Shown piece after piece: positions 1 through 27,276 of a stretch of DNA of 34,252 nucleotides. A program made the translations under genes and the position numbers. Position 1 is the stretch's first letter. Each line of letters starts with the position of its first letter. The notes under the pieces were generated by a model that searched no databases, had not been told where the DNA came from, and was given only the letters and a program-made list of their open reading frames with translations. Origin of the DNA: Jimgerdemannia flammicorona (taxonomy: Eukaryota); NCBI GenBank assembly GCA_003990765.1, contig RBNJ01000281.1, positions 1-34,252 of the forward strand, written 5' to 3'.

Positions 1-1
1 G

Positions 2-799
2 GATGATTCCAACATCTATTCAGCAAATTTTGAAGAACACCTGCACCACCTAGAGGAATTCTTCAAGCTCACCCGCAAGAATCACTTGAGACTGAATGCA
101 AAGAAATACTACTTTGGAAAACAGAAACTTGAATTCCTGGGATTCATGGTCTCAAAGGAACGAACTCATGCAGACCCAAAGAAAACTGAGAAGATCAACA
201 ATTGGCCAGTACCCAAGACTCCAAAAGAAATACTATCATTCCTGATGCTAGTATCCTACTACAGAAGGTTTATCATAGATTTTGCCCAAATCACTGCCCC
301 AATCCGAATCCTTCTCAAGAAAGAAGTGCCATTCAAATGGACAGAATCACAGGAAAAAGCTTTTAGAGAACTCAAGAACTGCATGACTACAGCACCAATC
401 CTTGTGCGCCCCAATCTACAGAAGCCATTCATCTTGTATACAGATGCTTCTAAAGATGGTCTAGGAGCAGTTCTAGCCCAAGAAGGACCTGACCAACAGC
501 ACCATGTGATAGCTTATGCAAGCAGAGCTACCAATCAGCAGCAGATGAACTATGGTAGCACCAAACTGGAATGCCTTGCAGTCATATGGGCAGTCACCCT
601 GTTCAAGCATTACCTTATTGGAAAAAGGTTCACCCTGATCACAGACCATGCAGCCCTCAAATGGCTATTCAACCACAAGGAACCTGCTGGAATTCTAGCC
701 CGCTGGATCGTTATCCTTCAGGATTACAAAATCACCATTATTCACAAAGCAGGGAAAGCCCACAACAATGTTGATGTACTTTCCCACCAGCCCCAATGA
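2..799 (+). CDS. pol: Pol fragment of element A: RT C-terminus and RNase H (5'-truncated by window)
   Basis: The frame is open from DDSNIYS (YxDD region) through FLGF, LYTDASKDGLGAVL, LECLAVIWA and TDHAAL to NVDVLSHQPQ*. Confidence 0.93.
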   Translation, partial: DDSNIYSANFEEHLHHLEEFFKLTRKNHLRLNAKKYYFGKQKLEFLGFMVSKERTHADPKKTEKINNWPVPKTPKEILSFLMLVSYYRRFIIDFAQITAPIRILLKKEVPFKWTESQEKAFRELKNCMTTAPILVRPNLQKPFILYTDASKDGLGAVLAQEGPDQQHHVIAYASRATNQQQMNYGSTKLECLAVIWAVTLFKHYLIGKRFTLITDHAALKWLFNHKEPAGILARWIVILQDYKITIIHKAGKAHNNVDVLSHQPQ

Positions 800-1853
800 A
801 TCAGAGGAAGGGTGTCCCGAGGAACCACACCCTAAAGAAAGCTCCTCAGACCATCAAAGCACAAGAAGATCTTATCCGAAAAGAACATCAGAAAGCCCAC
901 CAAGGACAGACAAGTATAGAAGAGAGGATTAAAAAAGAATATCAACATTGGCCCCACCTCAGAACTCAAGTTTGGGACATCATCCAGAAATATGACATCT
1001 GCCAGAAGTACCAAGGAAAGAAGAACTATTAAGCCCCTCTGCAACCGATTCCCCCACCCACTCACATCTTTCAAAGATGGGGAGTAGATGTAATTGGACC
1101 TCTACCAGTTACACCAAGAAGAAACAAATATATTCTTGTATTTGTAGAACATCTGACCAAGTGGCCCAAGGCTTTTCCAATGGAAATCACAGATGCCTTA
1201 ACCATTGTAGGCCTCCTCCATGGACTCACACTCAGATATGGACCTCCAGAAGAACTCATCTCTGACTGAGGCACAGAATTCATCAACAACATAATTACAA
1301 GTTATGCCCAAATCCACAAGATCCACCTCAAAAGGACCACATCATACCACCCCCAGACCAATGGCATGACAGAAAGAATGAACCAGACCATTAAGAGGGA
1401 CTTGTCCGAGTCAACTCTACTAATTGGGACCTCTGCTTACCTGAGATCCTGTGGGAAATTTGGAATACCCCTGCCACATCCACCAAACAAAAGCCATTCG
1501 AAATGATGTTTGCCAAGAAAACCAGAACTGCTGACCATGAGAATCTCGGAGACCTCCTCAAGAAGACAGAACAGTTACGAAATCAAGCCCAGGAAAGACA
1601 AAAGAAATACTATAACCAAAAACAGAAGGATCAGGAGATCAAGATTGGAGATCAAGTCCTAGTTTGGAGAAGTATAATTGAGACAAACTTTGCCGCCAAA
1701 CTGGAATCAAAATGGGAAGGACCTTATTTTGTATACAACATCAGAGGAACCAGCATCTATTTAAGAAGCATGGATAGATGAACCCTGAGAACACCAGTAC
1801 ACATCAATCACCTCAAGATATACCTCTTCTCACACCATAAATCAGAGAGTTGA
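796..1853 (+). pseudogene. Integrase of element A, separate ORF
   Basis: Starts at ATG 796. Contains an HHCC region (HQKAHQG...DICQ), WGVDVIGP, SD*GTEF, YHPQTNGMTERMN and KWEGPY, ending VHINHLKIY...*. Has in-frame stops and one frameshift near 1400. Confidence 0.9.
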
Positions 1854-2349
1854 CAACCACCTCCAAACTCTTGTTCTCAGTTCCCTCCAAGCCCTACCAG
1901 TTCCCCTGCCTCAGTTCTGGGAACCCAATGGAACCTATCTTCAGAGAATCCAAGTTCATCAAGAGAACCTCACCCTGGCTGAGAGATTACTCCAGGTCCA
2001 CCAGCTGCAGGCATATTATACAATTGGAGAACAATTGCAGAATCTTCCTCTCCCAGACCTAGCCTATATCCAAAACACCACTGGCCTGAACAGAAGGAAC
2101 ACTACTGCTGCAGACAGACTATACACCATATATAAACGAAATCCTTCTGCCTTAATCCAGGCCCAGTTTTCTCTGAATGACCTCCAAAGAATGACTCTAC
2201 CCACCTACCTCAGCATTATTCACCAAGTGGAGACCCTATTTTCTGAGGAAGAAGAAGAGCCCCTGGAATAGAGTGACCGCAGCTCAGATGATGATGATGG
2301 AACAGGTATAGATGCAGAAGCTGCTTATGTCTATTGGGATGATGACTGA
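1837..2349 (+). pseudogene. Accessory 3' ORF of element A, unknown function
   Basis: The frame is open from ATA at 1837 (probably a mutated ATG, M-N-Q-R) to TAG 2271 and continues to TGA 2349. Contains LQAYYTIGEQL...AADRLYTIY and an acidic tail. Confidence 0.7.
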
Positions 2350-2388
2350 AGAATAGTCTGGGACAGACTACCCTTCAGTGGGGGCTGA

Positions 2389-3854
2389 TGTAACAAGACC
2401 AAAACATACCACCTGAATTATAACTTAGCCAGATGATGCGAACAATTAGCATACTTACTCAGCATGATGTGACTTCCAGTATATCATAGTTACTCATGCC
2501 CACCACACTTATAATTAGCCAAGACACCAGATCAGAATTGTTTACCTGTGTCCTGAGGACACACTCATGTCTTGCAGACACACTCATGTCCTGTGGACAC
2601 ACTCATGTCCTGTGGACACACTCATGTCCTGCAGACACACTCATGTCCTGTGGACACACCTGTACCCAGAGGACACACCCAAACATTACCAAAGATAGCA
2701 AATCTATAGTTAGCCACATAGTAACCAGATAGTAACCAACTTGTATAAATTACCCCAGAGGCGCGAGTGAATAAAACTTCAGTCCGAATTGAAGTGCAAA
2801 CCAAAGAAGCCTCTAAAGGTTGGACAATTGGTCCTCTTATTCCCACTCCAGTCCACTTTCCAATATAAAGAAGAGTTTGTTACATTTTTGGTTCGCTTGC
2901 CAGATAAGCCTGAAGATTTGCCACCTAAGTTCAAGGAGAACTTCGCCGCCTTTTGAAGAACCCGCAGCTTAAAGGAATAAGCCACACTATTGGTACACTT
3001 GCCAGATAAGCCTGAAGAACCCTATCCTCCGTCTTTCCAAGAAAGCCACCTTGCTTAAGCCAGTTTCTGATGCAACTTCACAGTGATCCGTTCGCACAAA
3101 CAAAGCTAGTCTTTGACGTAACTTTGCCAAGAGACCCTTTTCCAAGGAATACCGCCAGTTGTTCGTATTCCCAGTAGAAGCCTGCTGATTCAGGAAGAAT
3201 CTGTGCCATCCCATTTCCCAGTTAGAGCCCACCGATTCAGGAAGAATCCACATCACCTGTCATTTCTAAGCTATCCGCCATATTCTCAGTTGAAGCCACT
3301 GATTTAGAAGAGTTCATGCCATCCGAGTTAATTCCCAGTTAAGCTGCCATTTTCAAGAAGTCTGCCAAATCTGCATCATCCACCACTTTCAAGTTATTCA
3401 CATTCCCTGTGAGCCCGGTATAGAAGAATCTGCACCATATGATTCCTAGTGAGCCAAATCGAGTTATCCGCCGAATTATCAGAACATCCGCATAAGGAAC
3501 CCGCCACGCTACACGAAGATCATCACGCTACACAAGATCGTCACACAGAAATCGCCCACCACCCAAGAAGGAGAACCGCTAAATTGCCAGACTGTCACAC
3601 ACAAGGAGATCATCACGCTACACAGAAATTGTGCTATTCCCAGTTGACCGAAGAAGGAAAAGACATACAAATCGCCGCTACACCCAGAGAACTGTCCCAA
3701 TAAGGAAATTGCTCGCACAGTATCCAGATCTTGACTATTATACCGCTAAATACCAAGAACATTTTGTTGCTTTTAACAAAGTAACTGGGGGCTCAAGCCA
3801 AACTACATCAACCCCCAACCTTGTATTTTGCCTCCATTGAGCCGGCACATTATA
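2389..3854 (+). repeat. 3' LTR of element A (about 1.47 kb)
   Basis: Begins TGTAAC and ends CACATTATA, a mutated CACGTTACA as seen in the 33681 copy. TATA at 2744, AATAAA at 2770. Confidence 0.88.
2547..2680 (+). repeat. 19-bp tandem repeat (CCTGTGGACACACTCATGT, about 6 units) in U3 of LTR A
   Basis: Directly visible head-to-tail units with no spacers. Confidence 0.92.
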
Positions 3855-4198
3855 ATAGATTAAATTGAATATACTAGATATATATTTCATCTATTCTTCA
3901 AATGATCACTAAGATACTTTATTTGCTATACAATCTTTACAGAAGTTATCATTAGGATATATTGCTAGTAATCCTCATATGAATTTATTCCTAATTATTC
4001 TTTTTAGACTTAATTTGTCCATATGTCCTAAGTATTAATACTATGTATTAGATATGTCAGATATAGTTATCATATATATAGAGGCTTTTATACTATTTAA
4101 TATACTATTGATTGCATAAAGATTGTCTTGTTTTAATACTATTATAATTTACTTAATATTTTTCAAACTATATACTATTACTCTTATTGAGTATATAT
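3855..4198 (-). pseudogene. Decayed Ty1/Copia fragment (GAG-pre-integrase region); target of elements A and B
   Basis: The minus strand reads T-*-Y-*-Y-L-G-H-M (WHxRLGH-like) and FCKDCIANK (CxxC). Confidence 0.6.
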
Positions 4199-6077
4199 TA
4201 TAACAATATCTTTGAAATCAGTGATATCAGAATTCAGAAGACTGTCTTGACTTTGTAAGCTACTAGTTACAAGTTGTGACTCAACTAAGACTCATCTTGA
4301 TCAGAAGATGATTCCTATCTAAACTTATAATAACTCATAATGAGTCCAATAGTATACTACTCTAAAGCAGATAACCTTACTCTCTGAACCAGAGGAGTAG
4401 ACCCTCAAGATATAAAAAGAAGTATCAAGAGAAGAAATACAAAGTATCAACTATATATAAAAGACTTACTACAAAACAAAATATCTGTCATCTGTCAAAT
4501 AGTAAGGTCAAGGAGCTACCCAGGTCCATTAGTTTAAGAATATATATTTACTGATATCAAGAGGGCATTGAGGTTATATATATATAAGAAAGACCTCTAG
4601 TCTGAACTTTTACATAAGAGACCTCTATCTCTATACTCTCAACTATCAAAAAATGGAAATAGGAATAACCACAGCTACTAAGTATCTCTGGATATAGTAA
4701 GAATATAAAAAGAAACATCACCTCTACTAATAATTCTCACAAGCCAGCTCCTAAGAAATTACAGACAATATATACATAGATAGATATTAACAAAAATTAG
4801 CCAAAAGAGTTTATCAGATCATCAGACATATATCCTGAACCATTCTCAATCTGGAATATGTCAAAATATCTGACATTTAAGAACTGACAAGCTGACATAT
4901 AGACCATCTTGAAGAAATGATTGCAGAAGAGGCCCAATATATCATTATAGTCAAGAGTGATGAGGGTCAAGATCTTTAGAATCTTATCCTAGAGAACAAC
5001 TCAGATTAGTTCATCTATGATCTGATTGTATTATTTCAAGACTCTTCTCTGAGAGTCTGCTCTCTCCAGAATCCCACAGATATTCCCTACTTTGTAGATA
5101 ACAATACCATTAACTAGAGATCTTAAAAGTAGAATGACTTTATGCTCTTTAGTAATATTATCAATAATGACTTAGAGAATAGTGGTGATCTATTTATCTT
5201 TTTAGAAGATGATCTCAACAACTTACTAAGAGATACAGAAAATAATTTGGCCAGACTCTCTGAAGAAAATGAGAAGAAGGATGAGAATGATATAATTTTA
5301 GTTATATTGAATTTTAAGATATATAGGGATAGTTCTATTAGTCAAATTAAGTAAGTTAGTTAGTTGGACAAATAGTAACTACATATTAACTAGCCAAAAT
5401 CATCACAAATATAAAATTAGCCTTATTCAGTTAGTTCATTACCTGAAATTTCAAAATTGTACTAATTAGCATCTATTAGTAATTGTGAGTTAAAATTAAT
5501 TATCTAGCCTTATATATAGCTTGGAAACTATATAAATACCCTCTGATCTATAGAAAATAAACCTCAGTCAATTAGTTTGCAATACTAACTTAAGTTCTGA
5601 AAGATAAGAAAGTCAAGTGTAAGAACTTTGAGAAAAGACTCCAAGAGCTAAAGAAATTACTCTTGCTATTGCCATTATAGAAAATTGGATACAAGACTAT
5701 GAAAAATCATCATGAAACTCAAGATACAAATCTGTCAGTCAAAATTACTATTGGAAAACAAGACTAAGGAAAAGACTTAGAAAAATTGCCAGGAAACTCC
5801 AGAACAACCTACTGGTACTGAAATTGGATACAAGATCTAAGAAATCTATCAGAAAACTCAAGAACAACATATGATATAAGTAATTGCCCTTTTAACATAT
5901 GATTTGAATAACTATCATGTAACCAATAACCAAAGACATGTGAACAGATAAAACAGCAGTTAAAGAGAACATTGAGTCAGAAATATAGTTGAAAATAAAT
6001 AAAAAATAGTATATAGATATTCAGTAACATATGAGTCATATATATCAAGAACTAAGATATATAAATTGCATGCTACA
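4199..6077 (+). repeat. 5' LTR of element B (about 1.88 kb)
   Basis: Aligns colinearly with 13741-14286 plus 20181-21623. Starts TATAAC (mutated TGTAAC) and ends GCTACA before the PBS. Confidence 0.88.
4340..5354 (+). pseudogene. Accessory ORF embedded in U3 of LTR B (about 335 codons)
   Basis: Starts ATG 4340 (MSPIVYYSK). Comparing the two LTR copies restores one reading frame containing LY*EF...QKLAKRVYQII and an acidic/coiled-coil tail. Most stops are explainable by transitions. Confidence 0.7.
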
Positions 6078-6080
6078 TTT

Positions 6081-6096
6081 TGGAGATATAACTGGG
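6081..6096 (+). promoter_or_regulatory. Primer-binding site of element B
   Basis: TGGAGATATAACTGGG lies 3 nt after the LTR-terminal CA, the same spacing as in element C. The tRNA is not assignable by eye. Confidence 0.65.
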
Positions 6097-6229
6097 AAAG
6101 TTTTCTAAAGACTTGGCCATTTGGCTCAAGAATCCAGCAGTTATTTATAGTGGAGGATTTAGAAGAAACTAGTCAGCAGTAAGACTAGGGCCATCAATAG
6201 TTTACTTCAGAAAGAGAAGCTTATATCAT

Positions 6230-9200
6230 TGTTAGAACAGCCCTTACCCTGTTTAGAACTAGTAGTCAGAAAACTAAATCAGAAGAAAGAAGTGATACAG
6301 ATTATGGTTTGATCTTAAAAAAAAGAAGATAACTCAGAAGACTATCTAAGTCTATCCAGATCCAAGGCCCAGAACAAGAAGAAGATTTTCCTGAAGATTA
6401 CTGGATTCTAATCTATAGAAGAGATTCAGACAGAAGTGACTACATTATTACTATCATTACTTAAGCCACTCTACTGGATTAAGCATATTTTGAAACATCT
6501 GAAGGAGAAGAAGACAACCATCCTTATCTTCCAGAACAAGAGAAAGATAATAATTGAAGAAGTTAACCAGACTACCTAAGAGATGAATTCAACCTTTATT
6601 ACTACTTAGGTAGTAATATAGATTCTTGATAAGATAAATAGAATTCTTTTGCTTCACAATAGCAAGAGACAGACAAACTGAACATTAGCTACATCAGTCT
6701 TATTCTAATTGTCAGAACCTCAGTACTCTGGTCCTTTATACTCTGATACTATTCACAAGAGACAAGAAGCTCTAGCCCTCTCAGTATCTTAGTATTTAGT
6801 GATTACTATCACTCAATTAGAGAACCACTACCATCAAGAACCTCTATCCCAGCTTTAATTAGAAGGGCCAGACTCCCCATATTCTCACCAAGATACTGCC
6901 TTTTGCCAGTACTACTAGTTCATCAAGCATCTCTACTATCTCTATCTCTATAAGTATCATTAAGAAATTCTACCCCAGAACTAGACTCAGATAGTAAAGA
7001 TGAACTAGACATAAGCTATCTTCAGGAATTCCATAGAGCAGACAGTGAGGATATCAAGGAATTCTTTGGAGAAATTGAAGTATAAGCAGTAGTCAAGTAG
7101 TAGAATATCCAGAGAAAGCTCAGAATTGTGAAATTACTTCTGAGATATTCAACCCTACAGAAGTATAACCAAGTAAAGCAAGTTGGAAGAGATAGAATAT
7201 ACCAAAAATCTTCAAGTAAATAGAGACCATATAGATAGATATAATATTTATAAAACCTAGCTCTATACTTAGATCAATGGTCTTGAGCACTAATGGGAAG
7301 TATAAGAAGCTTTAATCTATATGAGCCAAGCCACCAATAAAGCTCCAAAAGGTTTTTATTATTGAATTTAAGCTCAGATGATTAGGGCAAACTTGTAATC
7401 TTCAGTCTAACTAGCCTTGTCTAAACCACCTTTCTCAATAGAATATTCTCAAAACTTTGAAGACAGGTCATTAGAATGGGCTATTTAAGTATTGAGTAAC
7501 AAGTTGCTAGAGTATAAGAATGCTGAGAAGTAGACTATAGACTATCTCAGCAAGTTCAAGAATATCAAGAACCAGCTCAAGCTGAAACCTTAAGAACTTA
7601 TATAATAACTATAAAATAAGAGAATGTCTACTTGAGAGCCCAGTTGGCCAGCTATGAGATCAGACCCCCACTCTCAATTTCAACTCAATACAGGCAACAA
7701 TAGCAGCCCCCACTAAGAACTTAAGAAGACCCTATGATAATGCTCACTAAATAAATAAAAGACCTAGTTATTGTGATTGCTCAGTTAAAGAACTAAGAGA
7801 GAAGATAATAAGATTATTGTTGAGATAATAGACCAGACTACTGATAGTAAGATAACAGGAGTTCCATTCAGGCCCCACTGGTTACAACTGCAGATTCACC
7901 AGCAATAGGTTTCTATACTCTAACTTGCTTCAACTGTAGAAACCAAGATTACATTCAGAGGTTTTTCCTAAAGAAACAAACTCCATCCAAATACAGAAAT
8001 ATCAATCTCATTTAAGTAGATGAAGAGACTCAAAAAATATAAGAAAAAGCTACCTGACTTCATGATCAAGAGAATATCTATCCATACTATAAAATCTTTT
8101 TCTCTAAGATAACTTGAGATGTAGTATATATATTGACCAGAGAATGAGAAAGACCTCTAAGGACCCCACTTCCACCACCATTGCCTGTAACTATATCTAC
8201 AAGCAAACATCTAAGATATGGCCATTCTTTTTCAGATACTTCTCTGAAGAAGGACAAGATTGTCAGAGGAGACACCTCTGAATCAGAAGCTGGTCCATCA
8301 AGAGTATCAAGAAGTACCTCTCTATCTGATCTTGAAGAAGACAAATATATAAGTATAGAGTCCTCAGCTGATGAAATGTCCAATAGAAATAAGAGGATCC
8401 ATTATAAAAGACCTAGACATTAAAGAAGCAATAAGCCCCATGAAGCAGCATTACTTTGGAAACATCACTATATCCAGAATACAGGTCTCACAGTTGAACA
8501 AGTTCTCAAGAATATACTAGAGATTAGGTGAAAATTCCTAAAGGAAGTTAAAGAAGATATCAAGAGAATTTCTGTCCAAGGACTATATATACTAGAGCCT
8601 AGCACTATCTATGTAGTCTATGAATATCAATATTAAGAATATCAATCTATAAGACTAACTAATGAAAAGGTATATAGTGAGAATACCAGAATTCTTATTA
8701 ATACTGAAACAGCAGTTTGCATTATCACCCAGTGAATACTAGAAAGAATTGGATGGAGAATTGATGAAGACACCAAAGCAAGAGTTATTATGGCAGATGA
8801 ATCAGCATCTATCCCCCTTAGACTAGTCAGAGATATATCTATTTAAGTTGGAAAAAAGTCTACCTCAATATAACTTAAGCTATTGTAACTCTAGTAATCT
8901 CTTATAATCTGATTTTGAGAACTAACTAGTTAAACTAAGTTGGAGTCAATGTAGATATCAAGAAATAACTCCTGGTCTTCACCTTCTATAGATAAAAGCA
9001 TAAGGTACCAATTGAGTCAAAAGAATTAAGGAGAGCCAGTCAGGTCTCTAAGACAGAATAGTAAGGATATAGAGATATACTCACTATTATAGAGAATAAA
9101 GGTAAAGCAAATTTTCTACAAGAACTAGGAAGTGATTTTGATACCTCTAAAGACTCTGAAAGTAGTCAAGAAGACCTTTTTATCAGAGTTATTAATACTG

Positions 9201-12144
9201 AAAGCCTGGAAGCAAGTATTGATTAAGCTATTAATGAAGAAGCAGTACTTATATTTGAAGGACCATCTATACAACCACTCTTATCTCTGAAAGAAAATCA
9301 AATTATGCAAGCCATCTACCTAGGTATATATGAATACTATAACTGTTTCTACTCATCAAAAGATAATTGTAGCAACTGCCAAATTCTTAATCTCAACAAT
9401 ATTTTAATACTAGCAATCAAAGATTAAAATGAGCTCCAGTACTCAGATAAATATAACTACCCACTCTAAAGGCTTTCATAAAGACCTATAAGAAAAAGCA
9501 GAAAATTCTCTCTCACTAATCTTTGGAGATCCTCATAATTAAAGGCAATAATAACAGTACTTATACCATTATCTGAGCCCTCTAGATCACTCTACCTATC
9601 TATGATAAATATTGAAAGAGGTATTCAACAAGTAAGAAAATCAGACAGTAGAATGAGGAATTCATCAAGCAAGGGCACTGTGATTGTGGAAAACCCTTTA
9701 TCTATTACTAGTATAAATATCAAAGTATTTACCTCAGTAAAGATATCTATAAAAGCCAAGGATCCCACTTTGTAAGAACTTTGAATTTGCTAGACTTGTT
9801 GGAAATACAAAGAGATCAACCATGAAGAAGACTATAAAGTCAAGAACAAGACCTCTATCTAGAAGCTACTATTAGAAATTTATGTCATTATTTATTAATA
9901 TTACCAGTCACACCAAGATAAATAAGAAGTCAATCTTGTCTTCACCTTCAAAGAAGCCTTAGATCTATTTGGAAAAACTAGATTCAACTATACAAGAAAC
10001 CTAAAGACTTGAGTATATTGGCCATTATTTAAGTCAGAATATATGAAGTTCTCATCTGTAGTAGTAACTACTGAATTGACATTCCTCAAGACCCAGTCTG
10101 TCATCTAAGTCAAACTGCTCTCACCTTGGGCACAACCTCCTCTTGCACAAGTAGAAGGATCAGTAGGATATGACCTCTGTCTTCCCTATCAGGCAATGCT
10201 CTATCCAGGACTACTAGGATTTTTGACCTTCAAATCACACTTGCTATACCATCTGGATATTATGGACAACTGGCATCAAGATTATCTCTAGCAGTCAAAG
10301 AAATCATAGTAAAAGGAGAAATAATTGATTAGAATTATCAAGGTCCTCTGAAGGTCATTATTTGCAATAATAGTAAAAACTACTGAGTCTTTAACCCCTT
10401 GAAAGCCATCTGCCAAATTCTATTTATTAAGATATTACAGTCTACTTTTCAAGAGGTAAATCAACTAGACAGCACTAAGAGAGGACAAGGAGGTTTTGGA
10501 AGTATATATAAATAGAACTCCTCTATTACTACTCATTGAAGTTTACTTAACAATAGTAGCTAAGTTCTGATAAATAAAATCATATATCTGCCACCCTATT
10601 TAAGCAAAAGAAGATATCCTCCTTCAACTATATAAACAAAGAAGTCTTGATATATATCCATCTGTAGATACCAATAATCTGATATTTGAGTCATCAATAG
10701 AACTCCAAGAAAATTATCACCTTCTCCTGACTGAAGAATGAATCTATAATAGATATTATTAATCCACATTTCTGGGCTTTAAAGTAGTAATAGTCTCTAG
10801 AGGAATAATATTAAGATACTTTGAATTTCTGATAGATACCTATGAGAAAAAAGTCTTTGAATTTTTGAAAAATAGCAAGCTCTCTCTAGTGAGACTGATA
10901 GTACTAGAGAAAAAGACTCAATAATTAAAGCCATTGATATTGAGACAACTCTGACCAAGAATTAGCAATAGTAGATACAGAAGTTGATAGAAGAATATAA
11001 AGATATATTTACTATTATATATAATAATTTTTCACTATATCAATATAGAGAATATGCAATATATATAGAAGATATCAAACCAATCTAATAATATCCCTAC
11101 TGAATACTACACTACTTGATTGAGTTTAAATAATAATATATAGATGAAAAACTATGAAATAGAGTTATCAGACCCTCATTAAGCCTCTGGGCTTCACCAG
11201 TAATCATAGTATCAAATAAAAGAGACCAGACAAGAATAGTATGAATACCTCTAGATGCTATTTAGACTATGCAATATACTAGTCTTATTCTAGTAAATGA
11301 TGAACTATATATACTGAGACCTTGTTGGAAGAAATGTGCTAGTATTATAAATGATATAATTATCTACTCTAAGACATTTGAACAATACCTGTGAGATCTC
11401 TATGAAGTATTTGATACCATCTGAAACTCAGGATTTAGACTCAATACTATGAAATACTTCTTTAGAAAACACTAAGTTAAATATCTAAGATATATAGTTT
11501 TAGCCCAAGGAACTCATGCTGATCTGTGTAAGGTAGAGAAATTTAAGAATTATCCAACTTCTATCTCTATAAAGGAAGTTCTATCTTTTCTTATATTAGC
11601 ATCTCATTACTAGTAATTCATCCTAAGATTTTCAGATAAGACAGCTCTACCATATGATATCTCCAAAAAGGACCAACTATTCTACTGAAAGGAAGAACAG
11701 TAGAAGTAATTTGGCTTGCTCAAAAAGGCCCTCACCAAAGTCCCTATTTTAGTATAACCAGATTTTAACAAACCATTCATCTTGGCAACTGATGCCTCTG
11801 TCCTTAGACTTGGATCAATCCTATCTCAGCTAGATGATCAGAAGAAAGAATATATTATTGAGTATACTTGTAAGGCCACTAATGATATACAAGCAAACTA
11901 TAGAGCCACTAAGCTGAAATATCTTGTAGTAATATAGACTATAGATCACTTCAGACACTACTTCTTAGAAAAGAGATTTGTCCTTATTACTTACTATCAA
12001 GCTTTATAATAGTTGTTCAACAAACCAGAACCCTCAGAAATCTTTACCAGATAGATCATATCTCTACAAAAATATCAGTTTACTATTGTCTGTAAGAAAG
12101 GAGTTAAGAATTTCAATATTGATATTCTGTTAAGGATCTCATGA
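6230..12144 (+). pseudogene. pol: Decayed gag-pol of element B (Gag with CCHC knuckle, protease, dUTPase, RT, RNase H)
   Basis: CFNCRNQDYIQRF at ~7927; ILINTETAVCII (DTG-like) at ~8690; SPWASPV at ~11180; mutated YxDD at ~11345; LATDASVLRLG at ~11780; ends NIDILLRIS*. RT has an internal deletion near 11235. The start is approximate. Confidence 0.85.
10100..10506 (+). pseudogene. dut: dUTPase domain of element B
   Basis: Reads VKLLSPWAQPP..GSVGYDL, YYGQLASRLSLA, GEIID*NYQG and TKRGQGGFGS, matching dUTPase motifs 1, 2, 3 and 5. Confidence 0.85.
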
Positions 12145-13418
12145 ACTTAATAAGAAGAGAAGGAGCCCCTATAAGAGAAGGTGCTTCCTGCTTACCCAAA
12201 TGAGCCAAGAACTGTACCTTGCTCTCATCTGGAGCCTATACTATAGAAGCTTCAAAAAAGGAATTCAGCCAGCTTATAAGCTATTTATTTAAAAGAATTT
12301 TAAAAAATTTCAAGAAAGTGATGGCAAACTTTAGAAGTAGAAGGAGATTAATATACCTAAGTTCTACAAGAAGATTAAATACTGAAGATACTTATAACTA
12401 ACTATGGTCAGAATATATGTCAAGAAATTGGAGCCACTATTGCAAGAATTAAGAAAAGATACTAGTGGCCAAAAATAAGGAAATAAATTTTGACACATAT
12501 TTAACAATATGATATCTACCAAAGATACTGATAGAAGCCAACTAACAAAGCACTACTAATACTGATTGTAGCACTAGCTAGAGTCTTTCAAAGACTATAA
12601 ATAGATATTATTGATTCTCTACTAATAACTAGCTCAGGAAGATACTATATTCTCACTATTGAAGATTATCTAACAAAATGACCTAAAGTCTTTGTCATTG
12701 AGACTACTGATGCTCAAACAATAATTAGGATTCTGTATGATGAAATTCTCAGCTGCTATGATATTCTCAAGAAAATTATCATAGACTAAGACTGAGAATT
12801 CATTAACAAAACCATAAAGACCTTTGCAGGTAACTTTAAGATCAAACTGTGATCAATAATAGCTTATTATCTACAAGTAAATAGACTTACTGAATAAATT
12901 AACCAGACCATTCAGCAAGGCCTCAATAAAACTAAAGATCAATTAAACTGAGATATTTATCTTTCAACAATCTTATTTAGTATCTATACTTCAAAGATAT
13001 CTGTTATTCAACAGACTCCTTTCTATTTGGTATATGGCCAAGAAGTACAAGACTCCACTGAACTGATTCAGCTGAATTTAGCAAAATGAGTTACTGAAGA
13101 GATTATCTAATTATATAAAATATACCAATAAGTATAAGAATTTATTACTAAGGCCCAAGAATTATAAAAGAAGTATATAACTACAAAGCTGACCTTGAAC
13201 TCTTACTTATTAGATAATAAGTCTTGGTATACTATACTATCATAGAAGAAAACTGAAGTGTCAAACTTGAACTGAAATAGAAAGGACTCTATCTTATATA
13301 TCAAGCATTTACAAATTATATCTATCAACTTATGACTCTAGATAGAGTTATACTCAAGACTAAGATATACTACAACTACATAAGACCTTACTACTTAGTA
13401 GAAGTAAAATATATTTGA
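12141..13418 (+). pseudogene. Integrase of element B, separate ORF
   Basis: ATG 12141 is in frame with the ORF-track segment 12219-12401. Remnants include IDIIDSL, D*D*EF, AYYLQVN, TPFYLVYG and K*KGLY. Confidence 0.8.
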
Positions 13419-13882
13419 ATAACTCAGCTCACTCCATCTGTATCATCACTATTGAAGAATAATAAATGCTTTCTTTAAAACTCAAGAAGCTAATAATATT
13501 GGAACTATTCTTAAGACCATCTATGTGACAGATATTACTACTAGAAATTGTCTCAGATTTTAGGAAAATCTATTTCTGAGAGGTTTGAACCCCCAGCTAT
13601 AATAATGAGAGCCCTCACCCTAGATAAGAATGGCCAGTTCTCATAAATATACCAATAGTTTATTCAAAAATGGAACTAAGACCTGCTATTTCTATATAAT
13701 CATCACTGCCAAGAATGACTCTAATTTTATAAGGAGCAGATGTAATAATAGCTTCAAAATCAGTAACATCAGAATTCAAAAGACCATCTTGACTTTTCAA
13801 GCCACTAGTTGCAAGTCTTGACTCAACTGTGACTCATCTTGATTAAAAGATAATTTTTATCTAAACTCATAATAACCTAAAA

Positions 13883-14006
13883 ATTAAAAAAAACTTATCT
13901 ATATAAGGCTATTTACTCAGAAAGGTAGTATCATTCTTATATAAGGATCATGCTAATCTTCTCTATATCATTTCAATTTTTTCAAGTATCAGCAGTTTCA
14001 AAGAAC
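13883..14006 (-). pseudogene. U6: U6 snRNA retrocopy, full-length and mutated
   Basis: The minus strand reads AAATTGAAATGATATAGAGAAGATTAGCATGATCCTTATATAAGAATGATAC, the U6 core with only transitions. It has a 5' GTTC-TTTG-AAAC (UUCG hairpin remnant), a 3' T-run and a degenerate 13-bp TSD, and is absent from the 5' LTR. Confidence 0.9.
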
Positions 14007-14367
14007 TTGATAACTTAAAATGACTCATAATGAGCCCAATAGTATACTACTCTAAATCAGATGACCCTACCCTATGGACCAAAAGAGAAGATCCTCAAAA
14101 TATAAAAAGTAATATTAAGAAAAGAAGTTCTAAATATCAACCACAAATAAGAGACTTACTATAAAATAAAATATCTACCATCTGCTAATAGTAAGGTCAA
14201 GGAGTCACCCAGGTCCATCAGTTCACAAACAGATATTTACTGATATTAAGAGAGTAATGAGATTGTATATAAGAAGGACCCCTAGTATCTTTCTCCAGTA
14301 ACATTCAGGTTACACAACCCTTTGATGACATTTTCAACACAGTTTCTGGAGAAAAGCTACTAGTATC

Positions 14368-16398
14368 ATGGCGACCAATGAGCATCTGGAGGTGCATACT
14401 GGGCAGGGTGGCCCTGGAGCATTTGAATGGCAGCAAGTGGGGAGAGGCCCCGGCTTGGAGGGAAGTATGAGGGGCCTGCTGGCAGGGGGCTGTGGTGGAG
14501 GAGGGGGCAGAGCTGGAGGTCAAGGGTCTGGCAGAGTGAGCTTTGCAGAGAAGGTGAAGGGGGGTCGGTAGGGAGCTGGACTGGAGAGCTGGTTGAGAGG
14601 GGGGAAGGTACCGGTGGCGGCTTCCAGGTAGCAGCCTCTTGGGGGTACCTCTCTAGTGGGCCATAGGAGTGGAGCTGGGGGGGTAGCAGCTGGGGCGGAG
14701 ACTGCTGATGGGAGTGTGATGGGTGATCTGGAAAAAAATTTAGATGGGACTGCTGATGGTGAGCCGAGCAGTGGGAAGAGCATGAGGCCCGGGGACCTGG
14801 CGGATGGTGTAACAGGACTGGTGGTGGCTCCGTTACTCAAGAAGTCGATCTCGGCGTTCACAGTCATGCTGTGCTTCCGGGGCTTAGCAGTGATGGCAAA
14901 AATGGTGTTGGGACTTATCGCTAAGCAGGTGGTGGGAGCGGCTTCAGTGAAGTTTCTGAAGGGACTGAAGGGGGTGGAGGTGGGATTTGAGGAGGTTGAA
15001 CTGCTGGAAGAGGCACTGAAGGTTGGGTTGGTGGTTGGGGAGGTGTATGTTCTAATGGCGAGGTATCTGAAATGGGATCCGAGGGTGGTCCAACTGCTGG
15101 TGAAGGGAGTACTCATGGTGACGGTGATGGAGACAAGGAAGAGAGTGGAGAATGTCATGGCAGAGTACAGAGAGGTGGTGGATATCAGATTCAGGGTCTG
15201 GGAAGGGACCATGCTCAGGACTGGGGATGTGGATGTGAGGATTCAGCTGGCTGGGAAAGAGGCTACCAGAAAGACGAGGGACTGGCCTTCAGTGTTGGTC
15301 TGGGGAGCTTTTCTGTGCAAGGTGACATAGGTGAAAGGAAGTGAAGAAGAGGAGGAAGATTTATTGGAAGTACTGGAGGAGCTGGATGGGGCTGTGGACC
15401 GGCGAGCTAAGGTCTGGAAGGCTTTCGAGGAGTCGATGCTCCTGGAGGTGGTGGATGGAAAGAGGATTCGAGTGGACAAGGTGCAGTGGGAAAGGGCTCA
15501 GGGGTGGAAGAGGCAGAAGGATCTGCTGGCTAAGCTGGGGGGGGGACCACAGAAGGATGCAAGCAGGAAGACAGGTGCAGAAGGGGCCGGAGCGAGTGTC
15601 TGGGTTGGTGAGAGGAGTGGGAACGATGGGGCAAAGTCAGGAAAGGCTAAGGAGGCGAAGATTAGTGACCTATATGCTGACGGCACCTTGGAGGTTTGGG
15701 ATGAAGTCTGGGAGAATTCCCCCACCCCCTCCCCTCTTATCAGGCATGGCCCGGCTTCCAGGAACAAGTCTGGGGAGGACGTGATGATGCTGGAGACCCA
15801 GCAGGTGAAATTCAGTATTCCGGAGGTATTGGATGGGGACCGAGTAGAGGCAGCAGGGGAGGAGGAACTGGTGGATGTCCCGGAGGTATGGGATGAGGAT
15901 GCAAGTGTGGGAGCTGACACCACGATGCTGGAGGGAGGGAGGCTGGCGACCCCTGGTGGAAAGGAGGTGGGGAACCTACTTTGGATGTGCCGGATGATGA
16001 ATAACCTGGCAGCAGAAGAGCTGGGGGAGGTGGACTTGTGTGGGATGGGTGACGAGCACTAGATGAGAATTTTGCAGGGGGAAGGAGTGGCGATGGCGCT
16101 GAAGGCGGAAATCCTTGCAGTGTATCTGGAGAAGGAAGGGTACGAGGTGGATAAGGAGAGGGAGGCGGAGTTGGCGGTGGTTGCTGGGGAGAAGGCTGAG
16201 TACTGTTGAAACCGGCATCATGGGTTGCAGCTTTGGCAGGAGGCTTGCATCAAGTACTGGGAGGAGTTTGAGGAGAAGGCTGATGAGGAGATGAATGAGC
16301 TGTTGGCTGGACTGGAGGCTCAGAGGGCTGAAGAGGAGGAGGTGATGGCTGAACATAATCTGGACACAGCGCAGGAAGAGAGGGGCATGGAGCAGTAG
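14368..16398 (+). pseudogene. LINE ORF1
   Basis: ORF-track segments 14368, 14656 and 15331 share one frame, broken only by TAG codons. Contains the SFAEKVK motif typical of L1/Tx1 ORF1 N-termini. Confidence 0.75.
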
Positions 16399-16428
16399 AG
16401 ATTGATTGAGAACAAACCGTATTTTACT

Positions 16429-19400
16429 ATGAACAGTATAACCAATATTTTTTCTTTGAATGTGAATGGGCTGAGGGGCACGGTTCGACACAGGAACATT
16501 TTTATTTGGTTGAAGGGATTGGAGGCCGATCTCTTCCTCTTGCAGGATGTCAGGTGCGAGGATGATGCTGATAGGATGGAATGGACTAGAGAATGGGGTG
16601 GTATGGCAACTTGGAACAGCAAGGTTGGGATTCTGGTTCAGAAAGGCAGAGGGGAGATAAAGGATGTGAGGAGCTGGGGGGAGAGACTGGTCTGGGGGGA
16701 GTGGATTTGTGCAGGTTGGGAGCTGGTCACCATTGGCTCCTGTTACTGCCCTGCTGTGCAGGGTGAGCATGTGGATTGGGTGAAAGAGCTCCTGGAGAGT
16801 GGGATCCTTGCTGAAGCTGGGTTGGATATGCTTGGAGGAGATTTCAATATGGTTTGGAATGTACGGTTGGATAGAACTGATGGAGGACGGGGTGCAGAGA
16901 GCAGGAGTGGGGGGTTGGTGATGTGGGAGGAGGTTGAATGGCTAGGAGCACTGGTGGATGCTGGTAGGGAGCACTGGGGGGACAGGAGGGTATATACGCA
17001 TTGGGCTGGAGGTCTGGGGACAAGGATTGACTGGATTCTGATGACCGACTATTGGGGCCACAATGTTTGGAAGATATTAGAGGTAGAATAGTATCTGTGG
17101 TCAGATCACTGGGGCCTCTTGGGACAGGGGTGTTTTGGGGGAAGTAGGGATGGGCCTGGACATTAGTGCCTAAATTCCTCCTTGTTGGATGATGAGGCCC
17201 AGTGGAAGGTGTGGGCAGAAGACATTCAGCTGAAGGTGGCGAATTGGTGGCAGGAAGGGGCCACAATTGGGGTTTGGTGGATGAGAATAAAAGAGATGGC
17301 CAGGATGTATTGGAGCAAGGCTGGCAGAGTGGCTGGGAAGCAGCGAAGGCAGAAAGTGCATTGGGCTTCCACTCGATTGGCTAGGCTCCTGGAGGAGGGG
17401 GCAAGACTGGCAGCAGTGGAGGGAGAAGAGGATTGGAGAATGTCAAGGGTGAAGATGGAGGTTGAGGAACTGCAACAGGTGCTACAGGAAGAGGAAGAGT
17501 CAAGAGTGCAAGGCCTGGTGGCATGGCTTCATTGGCAGGGGCTGGAGGAAGGGGAGAGGCCTTCCAAGTTTCTCACAAGGACACTTTGAGTGAGAAGGGT
17601 ACAGCAGCAGTGGGAAGGGGTACTTGGCTCGGATGATGTACTAGTGCATGGTGTACAGGATATCCTTAGAATGCTGAAGGCGAAATAGAGTGGATTGTGG
17701 AGTGAGGAGGAGGGTGGGGCAGATGCTACAGCCATTGACCAAACATTAGAGGATTGGCACCCACCACAAGCTGAGGGACTAGGTGACCTGGTGATGCCTG
17801 TAAGGGAGGAAGAGATCCACCAGGTTCTTGCCGCGACAGCCTCGGATACAGCACCTGGGGAGGATGGCCTCCCTTGGGACTTCTGGAAGCGAATGGTTGG
17901 AGTCCCGGGCATATTGGGGGAGTTGACAGCACTGTGTAACTCTATATTGCAGTCAGGGAGATGGGTGGGGGAGCAAGACCTTGGGCTGGTGATGCTGCTT
18001 TATAAGAACAAGGGAAGGTGAGAGGATTGGAAGAACTGGCAGCCGATAATGTTGCTAGATATGGACAGGAAGTTGGTGACTAAGGTGGTGGTCGCAAGGC
18101 TACAGAAGGTAGTCCAGCAAATTGTGGGTGGTGAGCAGAGGGGCTTCATAGGAGGTCGGCTTATTAGAGATGGCACAGCCTGGGTACATGGAGTTATTGA
18201 AGGTGCTCAAGCCTGTGGACTAGATGGGTGTCTTGTCTTCTTGGATCAGAAGAAGGCTTATGACTGGGTGCGGCGAGTCTGGCTGGCGAAAGTATTAGAT
18301 AGAATTGGAGTTCCAGGCCCATTTTGGTCAGCAATGGTCAGCCTACTGGAAAGGAGTAGGGCTGCGCTTGTATGCAATGGGCATCAAGGGGTGGCTTTCT
18401 CTCTGGGTAGGGGAGTGCTCCAGGGGGACCCACTGTCCCCCATTTTGTATGCTCTTTCCTTGGAACCTCTGATGGACAGGATTCGGTGGAAGATCGTGGG
18501 GCTCTCTATCTATGGCATTGGCTGGAAGGTTGGAGCCTTTGCAGATGACATGGTGGTTGGCTTGGGAGTGACTGTGGATGTCGAGGAGCTCCGGAAGACA
18601 GTGGAGTGGTATGAGGAGAACTCTGGGGTGAAGCTGAATTGGCACAAGTGTGAAACAATTGTGCTGGGCAATGGCTTGGTGGGCGGAGAAGTTATTGGAA
18701 CAATTGTCCCCACCGGAGAGGCAGTGCGGTACTTGGGCATCTATTTGTCGGTCTATGGGTCGGTTTTGCCCAGACTGTGGTGGGAGCAGAGGATTGGAAT
18801 TTGGGAGGAGGACCTGCAGAGTTGGGGGGGTCGACACTTCTCTCTGGCAGGAAGGATCTCGATTTTGAATGTATACTGGTTGCCAAAGCTGTGATATTTG
18901 GCCTATCATCTGGACTTCCCAGCCTGGGTAGTGAAGAGATTGGTGAAGGTGGCCAAGGGATGGATTTGGGCTGGCAGATGGAGTCAGATTGGTTGGGAGA
19001 CTTTGTCCCTACCGGGGTGAGAGGTGGTCTTGGGCTGGTGGACTTCCCCAAATGACTACACTGCTTGAGAACTTGGTAGCTGAGGAGGGTGGTGGAGTTG
19101 CATGGAGGGGGCTGGATCCCCCTGCTGCAGAAGATATGGGAGAGGCAGACATCGCCTAGAGGCTTGACTGGTGATCTTCTTTCATTGGTTGGGCTTCAGA
19201 ACACTGCACAACTGAGATATAAAGGCTTCTGGTGGGGGATAGCCAAGGGGGCACACCACATTGGTATTCACTGGCAAGGGGATGAGGGGGAGAGGGCTTG
19301 GGACCCAGTGATGTGGAGATGGGATAGCATTCTTCTGGGAGGCATGCCTTTACTGGAGTTCAACATTAGTGATAGCATCAAATGTCAAAGGGGCCCAGGC

Positions 19401-20084
19401 CAGGATCTGTGGCCTAGTGGTTGGCAAGGAGTTGGAATTGGTGAGGAGTGAGACTGGTAGGGGGTTTGGACCTGGAGTGCCATAGTGAAGAATTGGATGC
19501 TGCCGAAGTACTGGGTAGTCTGGTGGTGTATACTGAGGAGGAATGTGATGCTTAACTTCCACTCAGGACACCTTGTGGTAGGGGGCTGCTTTGACTGCGA
19601 GGAGTGCCATAATATTGGGCAGGAAGGGGGATTGGTACAGACACTGGAACATTGGCTAGGGGAGTGTGAAGTGTTGGGAGACTTTTGGCAGGCTATTGGG
19701 GACCGCTTGGGGGTAAGGCATAGGGGTGATGATGTATGGGGGAGGTGAGAGGACCTGAGAGATCAATTGATTGGAGGGGTTGGGGAAGAGTGGATTACTC
19801 TAGACTGGATGTTGGCTATTTGGATTGGGCTGGCCAGCCACTGGCTATTTGTATTTGAGGAGGAGAAGCGACCGAGCTTAGGGAGCCGGTTAGCAAGGTG
19901 GTGGTTCCTTATGGAGGATACCTTAACAGGCTGGTGGCTTGATTGGGGGCTGCAGGGGAGTCAGAGGCGCCACTTGGTGGTGAAAATCTGTGGTCAGAGT
20001 GGTGGGAGGGTTGGAGTTATTGGTGAGAGGATGGTCTTTATACGTAACAAGGTGGGGTGGGGCCACCTGATGGGGATCGGATAG
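16429..20084 (+). pseudogene. LINE ORF2: AP endonuclease, reverse transcriptase, C-terminal Cys/His domain
   Basis: Contains SLNVNGL, GGDFN, RIDWI, SDH, APGEDG, DQKKAYD, QGDPLSP, FADD, YLG, GGLGL and CFDC..EH...EC. Has in-frame stops and a frameshift near 19012. Confidence 0.95.
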
Positions 20085-21623
20085 TGGGTGGTGATATTGT
20101 ATACTCATTCATAGACTGGTAATAAAGACAGAGTCTAAGGGACTATAAACAAAAAAAAAAAAAAAAGAAGGACCCCTAGTCTAAATCTCTATATAAGAGA
20201 TCTCTATCACTATACTCTCAACTACTGAGAAATAAAGACAAGAATTATCACTATTATTAAGTGCCTCTAGATGTAATAAGAATATGAGAAGAGATATCAC
20301 CTCTACTAAGAATTCTTACAAATTAGCTCTTAAGAAATTTCAGACACTATATATATATATAGATAGATATAAATAGAAATTAGCCAAAAGAGTTCATCAG
20401 ATCTTCAGATATATATCCTGGACTATTCTCAATTTGAAATATTGCAAAGTCTCTGATATTTAAGAACTGGCAAGCTATTATATAGACTTTCTTGAAGAAA
20501 TAGTTATAGAAGAGGCCCAATCTATTATTACAGTTAAGAGTAATGAGAGTTAAGACCTTTGGAATACTATCCTAGAAGACAACTCAGATCAGTTCATCTA
20601 TGGTCTAATTGTATTATTTCAAGGCCCTCTCCTGAGAGTCTGCTTTTTTCAGAATTTCACAGATATTCTCTACTTTGTAGATAATAATATCATTAACTAG
20701 AGATCTCAAGAGCTATGTCTCTTAATAATATCATTAACAATAACTTAGAGAATAGTGACAACTTACTTATTTTGTTAGAAGATGACCTCAATAACTTTCT
20801 GAGAGATGTAGAAAATAATTTGGCCAGACTTTCTGAAGAAAATGAGAAAGAGAATGAGAATAATATAATTTTAGTCATATTGAATTTTAAGATATATAAG
20901 GATGGCTTTATTAGTCAAATTGATAAGTTAGTTAGTTGAACAAACAGTAACTGCATATTAATTAGCCAAAATTATCACAAATATAAAATTAGCCTTATCT
21001 AGTTAGTTAGTCACCTGAAATTCCAAAATTATATTAATTAGTATCTTTTAGTAATTGTGAGTTAAAACCAATTATCTTGTCTTATATATAGCCTAGAAAC
21101 TGTATAAATACCTCCTGATCTGTAGTGAATAAACCTCAGTACAATACCAACTTAAGCTCTAAAAGATAAGTATAAGAACTTTGAGAAAAGACTCTAAGAG
21201 GTGAAGAAATTACTCTTACCACTGCTACTATAGAAAATTGGATACAAGACCATAAAAAATTATCATGAAACTGAAGATATAATTCAGTTAATCAAACTAC
21301 CATTAGAAAACAAGACTAAGAGAAACCCCTATAAAACTTACCAAAAAAACTCTAGAACAATCCACCACTACTAAAATTGGATATAAGATCCAGAAAACCT
21401 ACCAAGAAACTCTAGAATAATATATGATACAAGCAATCACCCTTTTGATATATAATTTAAATAATTATCATATAACTAATAACTCAAGATATATGAACAG
21501 ATTGAATAGCAGTTGAAGTAAACATTGAGTTAGAAATATTGTTGGAAACAAACAGAAGATAATATAGATATTCAGTAGCATATTGAGCTAAGTATATCAA
21601 GAACTAAGAAATACAACATTATA

Positions 21624-21780
21624 TATTTCTTTATTACTACAGACAATCATTTTTCTGATTGAAAATAGATTTTGCCTATTTTTGGAATATATAGTATATT
21701 CTGAATTATATTAGCAGACTTTGTAATAGTTTTATAAAGATATATATTAATATTTTCTCTTTCTTAAGTATATATAATAT
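21624..21780 (-). pseudogene. Decayed Copia fragment (post-protease region), continuing into 3855-4198 across element B
   Basis: The minus strand reads IQNILYIPKIGK-(N)LFSIRK, resembling the Copia nVLyVP..NLlS motif. Confidence 0.5.
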
Positions 21781-22173
21781 TATTATTGTAAATATAGAGT
21801 ATATACTAGAGAAAGAGAGAGAGAGCAGAGTATTGTTTATTATTCCAGATAGTATATATATATATATATATATTTACATATTGAGTGACCTAACTCTAAT
21901 ATGATATAGTTATATATATATAAGTTATATTATTGAGATATTAAAATAATAAAAATTTCAATACTACTGCTAAACAAGATTATATAAAATGATATAATAT
22001 AAGTAGGAATATAATATAACTAAGTAATATCTGCAAAATACCTACAAATATACTAAAAGAATATAAGAATCTATAGTGAAAATAAAGGATATAGATAGGT
22101 CTTATTGGTGGAAAAACTCAAATATAGAGAAGAGATAAGATTGCTTAATCAGATACTAGTATATACCTATTTC

Positions 22174-24285: not shown

Positions 24286-24753
24286 TGTAACGTAGCAGAT
24301 ACTTACTCTTGAAAGTACGTCAGATTTCTGTATCTTGAAAACTTGACCATTCTGACTCTCACAGAGTCTCTTGAAATTGTAGGGGAGGGTGGGTGAGTTC
24401 AAAGTGTATCTGCCCACAGGCTTACTAGTTCCTTTACTATCTCTTTGCTTTTGAACTATTTCGATCTGAGGTTTATTCACTCGAAGATACTGGGTTATTT
24501 ATACAAGTTTGCTAGCTATGAGATAGCTACTGAGTTATGCGGCTAAGTTATGAGTCATTTAGACAATGTCTAGAAATTTAGACAATGTTGAAATGCTATA
24601 CTAAATCAGGGTGTTCGATTTGAATAATGTCTAAGAATTTAGACAATGTCGAAATCGAAGACTGCTAACTATAAGGCTATACTACTTTGGGACTGGGTGT
24701 GATCAAGTATCTATTCTCTATTTCCTTCTTCCAAATTTGGCTATACCATTACA
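24286..24753 (-). repeat. 3' LTR of element C
   Basis: Direct repeat of 32568-33035, preceded on the minus strand by PPT-like CAGGAGGAAGT. Confidence 0.97.
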
Positions 24754-26752: not shown

Positions 26753-26784
26753 CTCGGTGCTCGGTATATATGCATTTAGTCCTA

Positions 26785-27264: not shown

Positions 27265-27276
27265 CACAGTACTTTA

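Follow-up and report, generated by a model that had tools for sequence, protein, structure and literature searches.

In the window analysed here, a stretch of 34,252 nucleotides from Jimgerdemannia flammicorona (GenBank assembly GCA_003990765.1, contig RBNJ01000281.1, positions 1 to 34,252, forward strand), we confirmed that both long terminal repeats (LTRs) of a Ty3/gypsy element, which we call B, contain the remnant of a real protein-coding gene that is now dead. We consider it likely that B is a dead dUTPase-bearing Ty3/gypsy retrotransposon that carried an accessory gene of about 336 codons, here named ORF3 (for open reading frame, ORF), in the U3 region, and hence in both of its LTRs. The features of B on which this view is based are listed below; PR, RT and IN stand for protease, reverse transcriptase and integrase, PBS for primer-binding site, and LINE for long interspersed nuclear element.

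4199-21625, + strand: element B, Ty3/gypsy, with dUTPase and RNase H (Pfam).
4199-6077, + strand: 5' LTR of B, 1879 nt, TA(<TG)TAAC...GCTACA, delimited by alignments to the 3' copy.
4340-5354, + strand: decayed accessory gene (ORF3 family), 5' LTR copy; frame of 4340 to ~4576, 4-nt insertion, frame of 4584 to the TAA at 5352-5354.
5529-5567, + strand: TATA box plus AATAAACCTCAG motif, presumed U3/R border; kept in the four LTRs of B and C, and in A with changes.
6078-13740, + strand: interior of B, with PR ~8694-8843, dUTPase 10207-10503, RT/RNase H 11240-12129 and IN 12445-13394.
6081-6096, + strand: putative PBS-like TGG... stretch, 3 nt past the LTR end, read by eye.
13731-13740, + strand: polypurine tract of B, AAGGAGCAGA, directly before the 3' LTR.
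13741-14286, + strand: 3' LTR of B, part 1 (TGTAATAATAGC...), holding the start of the second ORF3 copy (ATG at 14030).
13899-14011, - strand: decayed U6 snRNA pseudogene (match to the full Rfam model RF00026 at 53 bits; gathering threshold 44).
14287-20164, + strand: LINE within the second ORF3 copy, with APE and RT and a poly-A tail.
20181-21625, + strand: 3' LTR of B, part 2, in which the second ORF3 copy runs on to 20926.

The LTRs of B form a direct repeat of about 1.9 kb whose copies are ~81-83% identical, the 3' copy being interrupted by the LINE. The repeat starts at 4199/13741, immediately after the purine run AAGGAGCAGA, with TGTAAT (TATAAC in the 5' copy), and the changes at its ends, TA(<TG)...CA in the 5' copy and TG...TA(<CA) in the 3' copy, are transitions. 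The PR, dUTPase, RT/RNase H and IN regions of B are colinear with those of two other Ty3/gypsy elements in the window, A and C, as seen by tblastn, and follow the Ty3/gypsy order PR-RT-RNase H-IN.

Several lines of evidence demonstrate that the LTRs of B contain the remains of a gene. Firstly, phmmer, queried with the X-masked frame 4782-5351, returned four matches at E <= 0.001 from a set of 1.84e9 representative proteins (E 9.3e-22, 1.9e-12, 2.5e-10 and 1.1e-8), and a profile search of a set of 5.8e9 proteins led to a family of 10 proteins, 87-342 aa in length and sharing 39-85% identity with the first. Secondly, a hidden Markov model (HMM; alignment A4) that was built from these 10 database proteins and contained no sequence of the window was run on the six-frame translation of the whole window, which gave nine rows at E <= 10, three of them at chance level. 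It matched the 5' copy in one frame at 4587-5324 (E 7.3e-56, 178 bits, HMM positions 34-277 of 292), HMM positions 9-31 matching the upstream frame of this copy, and it matched the 3' copy at 20353-20715 (E 1.2e-43), 20118-20357 (E 2.6e-16) and 14197-14319 (E 7.5e-5). Among 200 shuffled versions of the 5' read-through, none exceeded 6.1 bits, compared with the 178 observed. The closest relative, P0012, is identical to the 5' copy at 108 of 201 residues and to the 3' copy at 71 of 117. Furthermore, both the N-terminus, MSPI...VRSRSYPGPLV.EYIFTDIKRAL, and the C-terminus, ...ILVILNFKIYRDSSISQIK, align with the relatives, with which the C-terminus has ...LNF...SISQI in common; compared with these relatives, the protein of B has about 48 additional residues after its fourth residue. 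Other comparisons were negative: Pfam gave no family at E <= 1 for 12 LTR frames, the LTR translations had no tblastn match better than E 0.09 elsewhere in the window, and the raw read-through of B did not match the 3' ORF of C in BLASTP, the family profile alone bridging B and C. A practical warning is that genes may go unnoticed in very long LTRs, and that hypermutated copies call for stop-masked profile searches.

The gene is heavily damaged. No forward frame of 4340-5354 is open: they contain 31, 24 and 24 stops in 338, 338 and 337 codons, respectively, and the longest stop-free forward stretch measures 73 codons (5133-5354). Translation with alternative genetic codes (tables 4, 6, 10 and 30) did not open the frame. 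Read along the path of homology, the 5' copy contains 16 in-frame stops and the 3' copy 11, six of them common to both (two of these six were read by eye from the alignment). The ATG, at 4340 and 14030, is conserved in both copies. The copies have no stop in common in the frame of 4340 over 4340-4597, and three in the frame of 4584 over 4791-5354 (183 codons), compared with 13 and 20 in the other forward frames and 8, 18 and 11 in those of the minus strand.

The positions of the stops reveal how they arose. Codons for W, Q and R (TGG, CAR and CGA) become stops by one C>T or G>A change. In 4584-5351, 12 of the 14 stops fall on W, Q or R columns of P0012, which make up 42 of its 255 columns (hypergeometric P 6.5e-9), and the remaining two on E; in 20353-20715, P0012 has Q, Q, Q and W at all four stop positions. 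Among the 1963 sites at which the LTR pair can be aligned there are 281 transitions and 94 transversions; CpA is the favoured context, and CpG is absent. The stops on W, Q and R columns thus fit the C>T/G>A decay that also stripped CpG from B, and the damage to the gene is C>T/G>A hypermutation. In addition, each copy has suffered indels of its own: 4 nt were gained at ~4575, within a TA run, in the 5' copy, and the 3' copy shows -1 at 14186, +4 at 20347, -10 at 20712 and -1 at 20923. Every one of these indels is private to one copy, and at each place the other copy keeps the frame that aligns with the family. In a frameshift-tolerant stop count compared with dinucleotide shuffles, the 3' copy had z values of -3.4 to -3.7 and the 5' copy of -2.2 to -2.5; the same test gave about -2.6 for the real pol of B and about 0 for R-U5 of the LTR. 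However, the minus strand of the 5' copy scores alike (-2.2 to -2.5), and the stop count by itself is therefore suggestive and not decisive.

The position of the gene within the LTR becomes clear by comparison with elements C and A, whose relevant features are as follows.

24285-33036, - strand: element C, a more complete Ty3/gypsy element (zinc knuckle, PR, dUTPase, RT, RNase H, IN).
24285-24754, - strand: 3' LTR of C, 470 nt, TGTAATGG...TTACA, 95% identical to 32567-33036.
25604-26836, - strand: internal 3' ORF of C, a distant homologue of the B gene, between IN (end ~27289) and the polypurine tract at 24755-24763.
1-3962, + strand: element A, the 3' portion of a Ty3/gypsy element, including RT, RNase H and IN.
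1789-2385, + strand: 3' ORF of A, a weak homologue, which ends beside a putative junction of polypurine tract and TGTAAC at 2391.
2391-3962, + strand: putative 3' LTR of A; its presumed start is at 2391, and its end at 3962 is common with A'.
33565-34252: inverted partial copy of the end of A (A'), with similarity to A's end at 3962.

In B, the ATG lies 141 nt after the start of the LTR and the stop codon 175 nt before the TATA box, which is conserved in both copies (5529-5536 in the 5' LTR). This box is part of a TATA + GAATAAACCTCAG module, consisting of TATAAATA plus (G/A)AATAAACCTCAG and located downstream of the gene, that, with up to two mismatches allowed, occurs in each of the four LTRs of B and C but at no other place in the window. 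The ~180 nt of B around this module, in the region after the ORF, align to the LTR of C with a score reached by one of 300 shuffles, and in a second test by two of 500 for each copy. The module is found at about position 1357 of the LTR in B and about position 277 in C, and this difference of 1080 nt is close to the 1015 nt of the ORF. The start of the LTR looks conserved as well: the junction of polypurine tract and TGTAAT in B resembles the AGGAGGAAGT/TGTAATGG junction of C (score 27, shuffles 19.4 +/- 3.2, reached by 8 of 300), and A has a similar junction, GGGGGCTGA/TGTAAC, at 2391. The TATA module of A, at ~2743-2790, aligns with that of C with a score reached by none of 500 shuffles. The gene of B is thus located between the 5' end of the LTR and a promoter/poly(A) module that is conserved across the three elements, which would place it in U3, and these comparisons support the view that the decayed gene lies in U3 of both LTRs of this Ty3/gypsy element.

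An earlier note on this DNA, made from the sequence and a list of its ORFs, had already placed a gene inside U3 of both LTRs of B, upstream of the TATA box, and the LTR-start junction and TATA module conserved with C and A bear this out. It described a sense ORF of about 335 codons; the span is right (4340-5354 minus the 4-nt insertion), but there is no open frame, and the many stop codons, 16 of them in frame in the 5' copy, were not mentioned. That the indels of the two copies differ and yet complement each other to restore one frame agrees with the private indels found here, the other copy remaining in the family frame at each of them. Its coordinates are essentially correct, including a TATA box that is kept in both copies, except that the ORF of the 3' copy ends at 20926 and not at 20939.

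The 3' ORF of C is homologous to the B gene. The HMM matched it at 26315-26740 on the minus strand (hmmsearch E 5.4e-5), and hhalign of the 10-protein family against the ORF of C plus its one database relative gave E 1.3e-4 over 123 colinear columns, with a score of 38.9, compared with 14.8 +/- 3.2 and a maximum of 28.6 in 65 column shuffles. For the ORF of A, hhalign gave E 3.3e-3 with a score of 26.1 (maximum of 22.0 in 65 shuffles), and BLASTP between the ORFs of A and C gave E 2e-4. The ORF of C is verifiably outside the 470-bp LTRs of that element. The 5' LTR of A is outside the window, and the junction at 2391 together with the TATA module at ~2743 suggests that its ORF is probably internal too. 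Accordingly, two further claims of the earlier note, that the gene has homologues in the 3' ORFs of A and C and that it is internal in these elements, both stand for C, whereas for A the homology is weak (HMM i-E 0.074, hhalign E 3.3e-3) and the internal position is deduced. A, B and C all contain the modules IN, ORF3, polypurine tract/att and TATA, but ORF3 of B is on the other side of the polypurine tract, and the distance between IN and this tract is ~347 nt in B compared with ~2.5 kb in C.

In the picture that follows, the reality of the gene, its presence in both LTRs, the pattern of its decay and its homology to the ORF of C are shown, whereas the site at which transcription starts, the way in which the gene is expressed and the course of the rearrangement are inferred. 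The gene of B lies 3' of the polypurine tract, between the 5' end of the LTR and the TATA/poly(A) module; C, and probably A, has a single copy of the homologous gene, located upstream of that tract. Reverse transcription copies to both ends whatever lies 3' of the polypurine tract, so that B carries the gene twice, once per LTR. The presence of the gene in both LTRs in turn implies, from the way LTRs are formed, that this layout would have been reverse-transcribed and integrated at least once. In a live element, the gene of the 3' LTR would be contained in the 3' end of an RNA begun at the promoter of the 5' LTR and would be expressed from genomic or subgenomic RNA, as are sag of mouse mammary tumour virus (MMTV) and lentiviral nef, and the gene copy of the 5' LTR would be upstream of the element's own start site. 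After integration, both copies decayed by C>T/G>A hypermutation, private indels and the insertions of the LINE and of U6. Solo LTRs would keep the gene and, as the earlier note proposed, might spread it.

How the gene came to be in U3 is a different matter: a move of the polypurine tract module, a move of the ORF, or re-acquisition of the ORF may each account for it. The upstream move of the LTR boundary proposed in the earlier note is possible on these data. It is also possible, though we hold it to be the less favoured course, that the U3 of an ancestor without ORF3 gained the gene anew, for example through a template switch to the co-packaged RNA of a different element bearing ORF3. The gene of B is 54-61% identical to P0012 and only about 20% identical (123 columns) to the ORF of C, in contrast to its RT/RNase H, which is 36-43% identical to those of C and A; moreover, U3 is the variable part of fungal LTRs, according to passages of PMC10787394. 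On the other hand, A, B and C all keep the gene just after IN and in the same orientation, the ATG follows IN at comparable distances (~490-620 nt in B and ~450-550 nt in C), no donor was identified, and the segment preceding the ORF matches nothing significantly. The data cannot separate new acquisition from a move of the polypurine tract module.

It is far less probable that 4199-5354 is the tail of a truncated upstream copy of B, in a tandem or recombinant array, in which case the gene would have the internal position seen in C and the real LTR would begin downstream of 5354. Such an arrangement would agree with the lack of a visible target-site duplication, with the size of the part following the gene (5355-6077, ~720 nt), which is closer to that of the 470-nt LTR of C, and with the fact that the region after the ORF aligns to the LTR of C only from C position 126 on. 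However, the similarity between the copies starts exactly at the junction of polypurine tract and TGTAAT of the 3' copy, a junction similar to the LTR starts of C and A. The 236 nt to the left (3963-4198) are unlike the interior of B upstream of 13741 (score 45, shuffles 36 +/- 6), which argues against a truncated upstream copy. Inspection by eye revealed no such junction between the stop codon and the TATA box; a pattern search for it was weak, finding only the junction of C and missing B's own. Finally, the idea that there is no gene, and that stops are scarce by chance in an A-rich, low-complexity LTR, might draw on the lack of an open frame and on the 5' copy, where z is about -2.2 to -2.5, a modest stop deficit equalled by its minus strand, but it is refuted, and retains practically no probability, by the matches to outside proteins (phmmer E 9.3e-22, profile E 7e-56 and 1e-43), by shuffles reaching at most 6.1 bits, and by the stops falling on W, Q and R columns.

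Several points nevertheless weigh against our view that B carried ORF3 as a U3 gene. The six stops common to both copies may mean that the source copy was damaged already; parallel changes at the hot W, Q and R codons would also suffice to explain them, a hand estimate from the substitution counts of the LTR pair putting the share of CpA sites changed per copy at about 39%. The transcription start was placed from the position of the TATA box, the putative PBS of B is only TGG-like, and no target-site duplication is recognisable at the ends of B (TATAT before 4199, TTTCT after 21625), which decay may have masked. The hhalign probability for C is just 53%, and the HMM match to the 3' ORF of A (1939-2166) is weak, with an i-E of 0.074. 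The 141-nt segment preceding the ORF in B has no significant match to the U3 of C or A, where 114 and 253 of 500 shuffles, respectively, reach its score, or to the spacers of C, so that more than one kind of rearrangement may apply. Family B is represented by one copy, and the database relatives of its gene by protein sequences.

With respect to the encoded protein, Pfam searches with eight family and neighbour proteins gave only two unrelated rows at chance level, a PDB sequence search with two profiles gave no matches, and the best values in the ESM Atlas, 0.83 and 0.88, were below the level of 0.9 that counts as a lead. Longer fused forms of ORF3 proteins were searched for and none was found. 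A profile scan of genome contigs for relatives yielded one locus, a chance match of 16 residues on an ordinary bacterial contig (L001). AlphaFold2, run with the 10-sequence alignment, predicted mostly helices at low confidence (mean pLDDT 42, pTM 0.25). None of eight proteins has a transmembrane segment, their highest Kyte-Doolittle means over 19 residues being 0.59-0.99, and the family is therefore not env-like. Judged from these searches, ORF3 represents an orphan accessory-protein family to which Pfam, PDB and the Atlas assign no function. The last 90 residues are strongly acidic in eight of eight proteins (P0002-P0005, P0007-P0009 and P0012), and P0004, P0009 and P0010 have the C-terminus ...DEAP..LNFLL, an end that presumably resembles an acidic dileucine sorting signal.

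U3 genes are a hallmark of a few complex retroviruses, and B shows the same layout in a Ty3/gypsy retrotransposon. In MMTV, the superantigen ORF sag is located in U3 of the betaretroviral LTR and can be read only from RNA that runs into the 3' LTR. Like sag, the gene of B is a complete sense accessory ORF of about 1 kb that would lie inside U3, and it is present in both LTRs. Unlike MMTV, the host element is a Ty3/gypsy retrotransposon and not a vertebrate retrovirus, and the B copy is dead; in addition, no sequence relation to Sag was found, Pfam giving no match for the ORF or its relatives. In the case of lentiviral nef and foamy-virus bel/bet, the 3' accessory gene crosses the polypurine tract into U3. 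In contrast to this partial overlap, the whole ORF of B is located 3' of the tract and starts 141 nt inside the LTR.

Athila/Tat elements of the Ty3/gypsy type contain env-like extra 3' ORFs. PMC5408684 describes ORF3s in elements of bdelloid rotifers, and PMC2864245 an 'add. ORF' in fungal elements. Like these, the gene of B is a sense ORF of unknown or accessory function after integrase, and the ORFs of C and A are of this kind; however, extra 3' ORFs of Ty3/gypsy elements sit between pol and the 3' LTR, whereas that of B is in the LTR, and unlike env-like ORF3s, the ORF3 family of B is without a transmembrane anchor. The main text of PMC5408684 contains none of the phrases looked for on ORFs that overlap, extend into or are inside an LTR, or on the polypurine tract. 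B and C also resemble the dUTPase-bearing Ty3/gypsy elements of Postia, Phanerochaete and Tuber: in both, the dUTPase is between PR and RT (10207-10503 in B and ~29990-30370, minus strand, in C), a position described in PMC2864245, whose passages on these elements contain nothing on genes inside LTRs. A fish element in which pol partly overlaps the LTR is described in PMC11117352. In open-access texts searched with exact phrases, ORFs in U3 or the LTR were found only for retroviruses, mainly as MMTV sag, and an earlier report may exist.

Standing beside relatives with an internal homologue, B provides a natural before/after pair for studying how a gene crosses the polypurine tract. The pair also bears on the effect of LTR duplication on gene dosage and survival, and on coding genes in solo LTRs, and it brings to light an orphan accessory-protein family common to at least three diverged elements. 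Whether the U3 placement was a working strategy of a retrotransposon lineage rather than a one-off accident seems doubtful to us. If it were, each insertion would deliver two gene copies, and LTR-LTR recombination would leave one of them in a solo LTR; solo LTRs could then act as scattered stores of a trans-acting protein of the element, or supply the host with material to domesticate. In that case the ORF3 family, which has a conserved core and an acidic tail and ends in ...LNFLL, would be a new class of retroelement accessory proteins with a role comparable to that of nef or sag.

The two insertions into the 3' LTR of B can be described further. The decayed U6 pseudogene is found in the 3' LTR only, not in the 5' LTR, 19 nt upstream of the ATG of ORF3. 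It is part of an insert of 135-148 nt (13877-14011) that is private to the 3' LTR and bordered by ACTCATAAT repeats, which suggests that it was retroposed after the integration of B. Two TATATAAGG motifs 5' of the ATG of the 3' copy were considered as an internal promoter and rejected, because they belong to this pseudogene on the opposite strand. The LINE is flanked by a target duplication of 16 bp (14271-14286 and 20165-20180); it has 53% G+C and a very G-rich sense strand (GC skew 0.32-0.52), unlike its surroundings.

The remaining feature of the window separates B from C.

21626-24284, - strand: decayed Ty1/copia pol, with RVT_2 (E 1e-13) and a retroviral SH3-like domain (E 2e-6).

B and C seem to have been inserted into or beside this older Ty1/copia element, and the stretches 3963-4198 and 33037-33564 have the same AT-rich, CpG-free composition as 21626-24284. 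The CpG count is 0 in B and in the AT-rich gaps, the observed/expected ratio is 0.2-0.3 in the interior of A, in C and in the LINE, and CpG is near expectation in the terminal 575 nt of A (0.84) and in A' (1.2). Such contrasts between adjoining repeats point to sharply differing histories of decay or methylation. The putative U3 of A contains a tandem array of a 19-nt unit (5.8 copies, 2549-2678), about 70 nt 5' of its TATA module, that has the look of an enhancer. On the minus strand of C, an open stretch of ~105 codons follows integrase (26950-27262), a 31-nt tandem repeat of 2.2 copies (26812-26878) is located just upstream of the start region of ORF3, and a TATATA is present about 75 nt before the ATG at ~26695.

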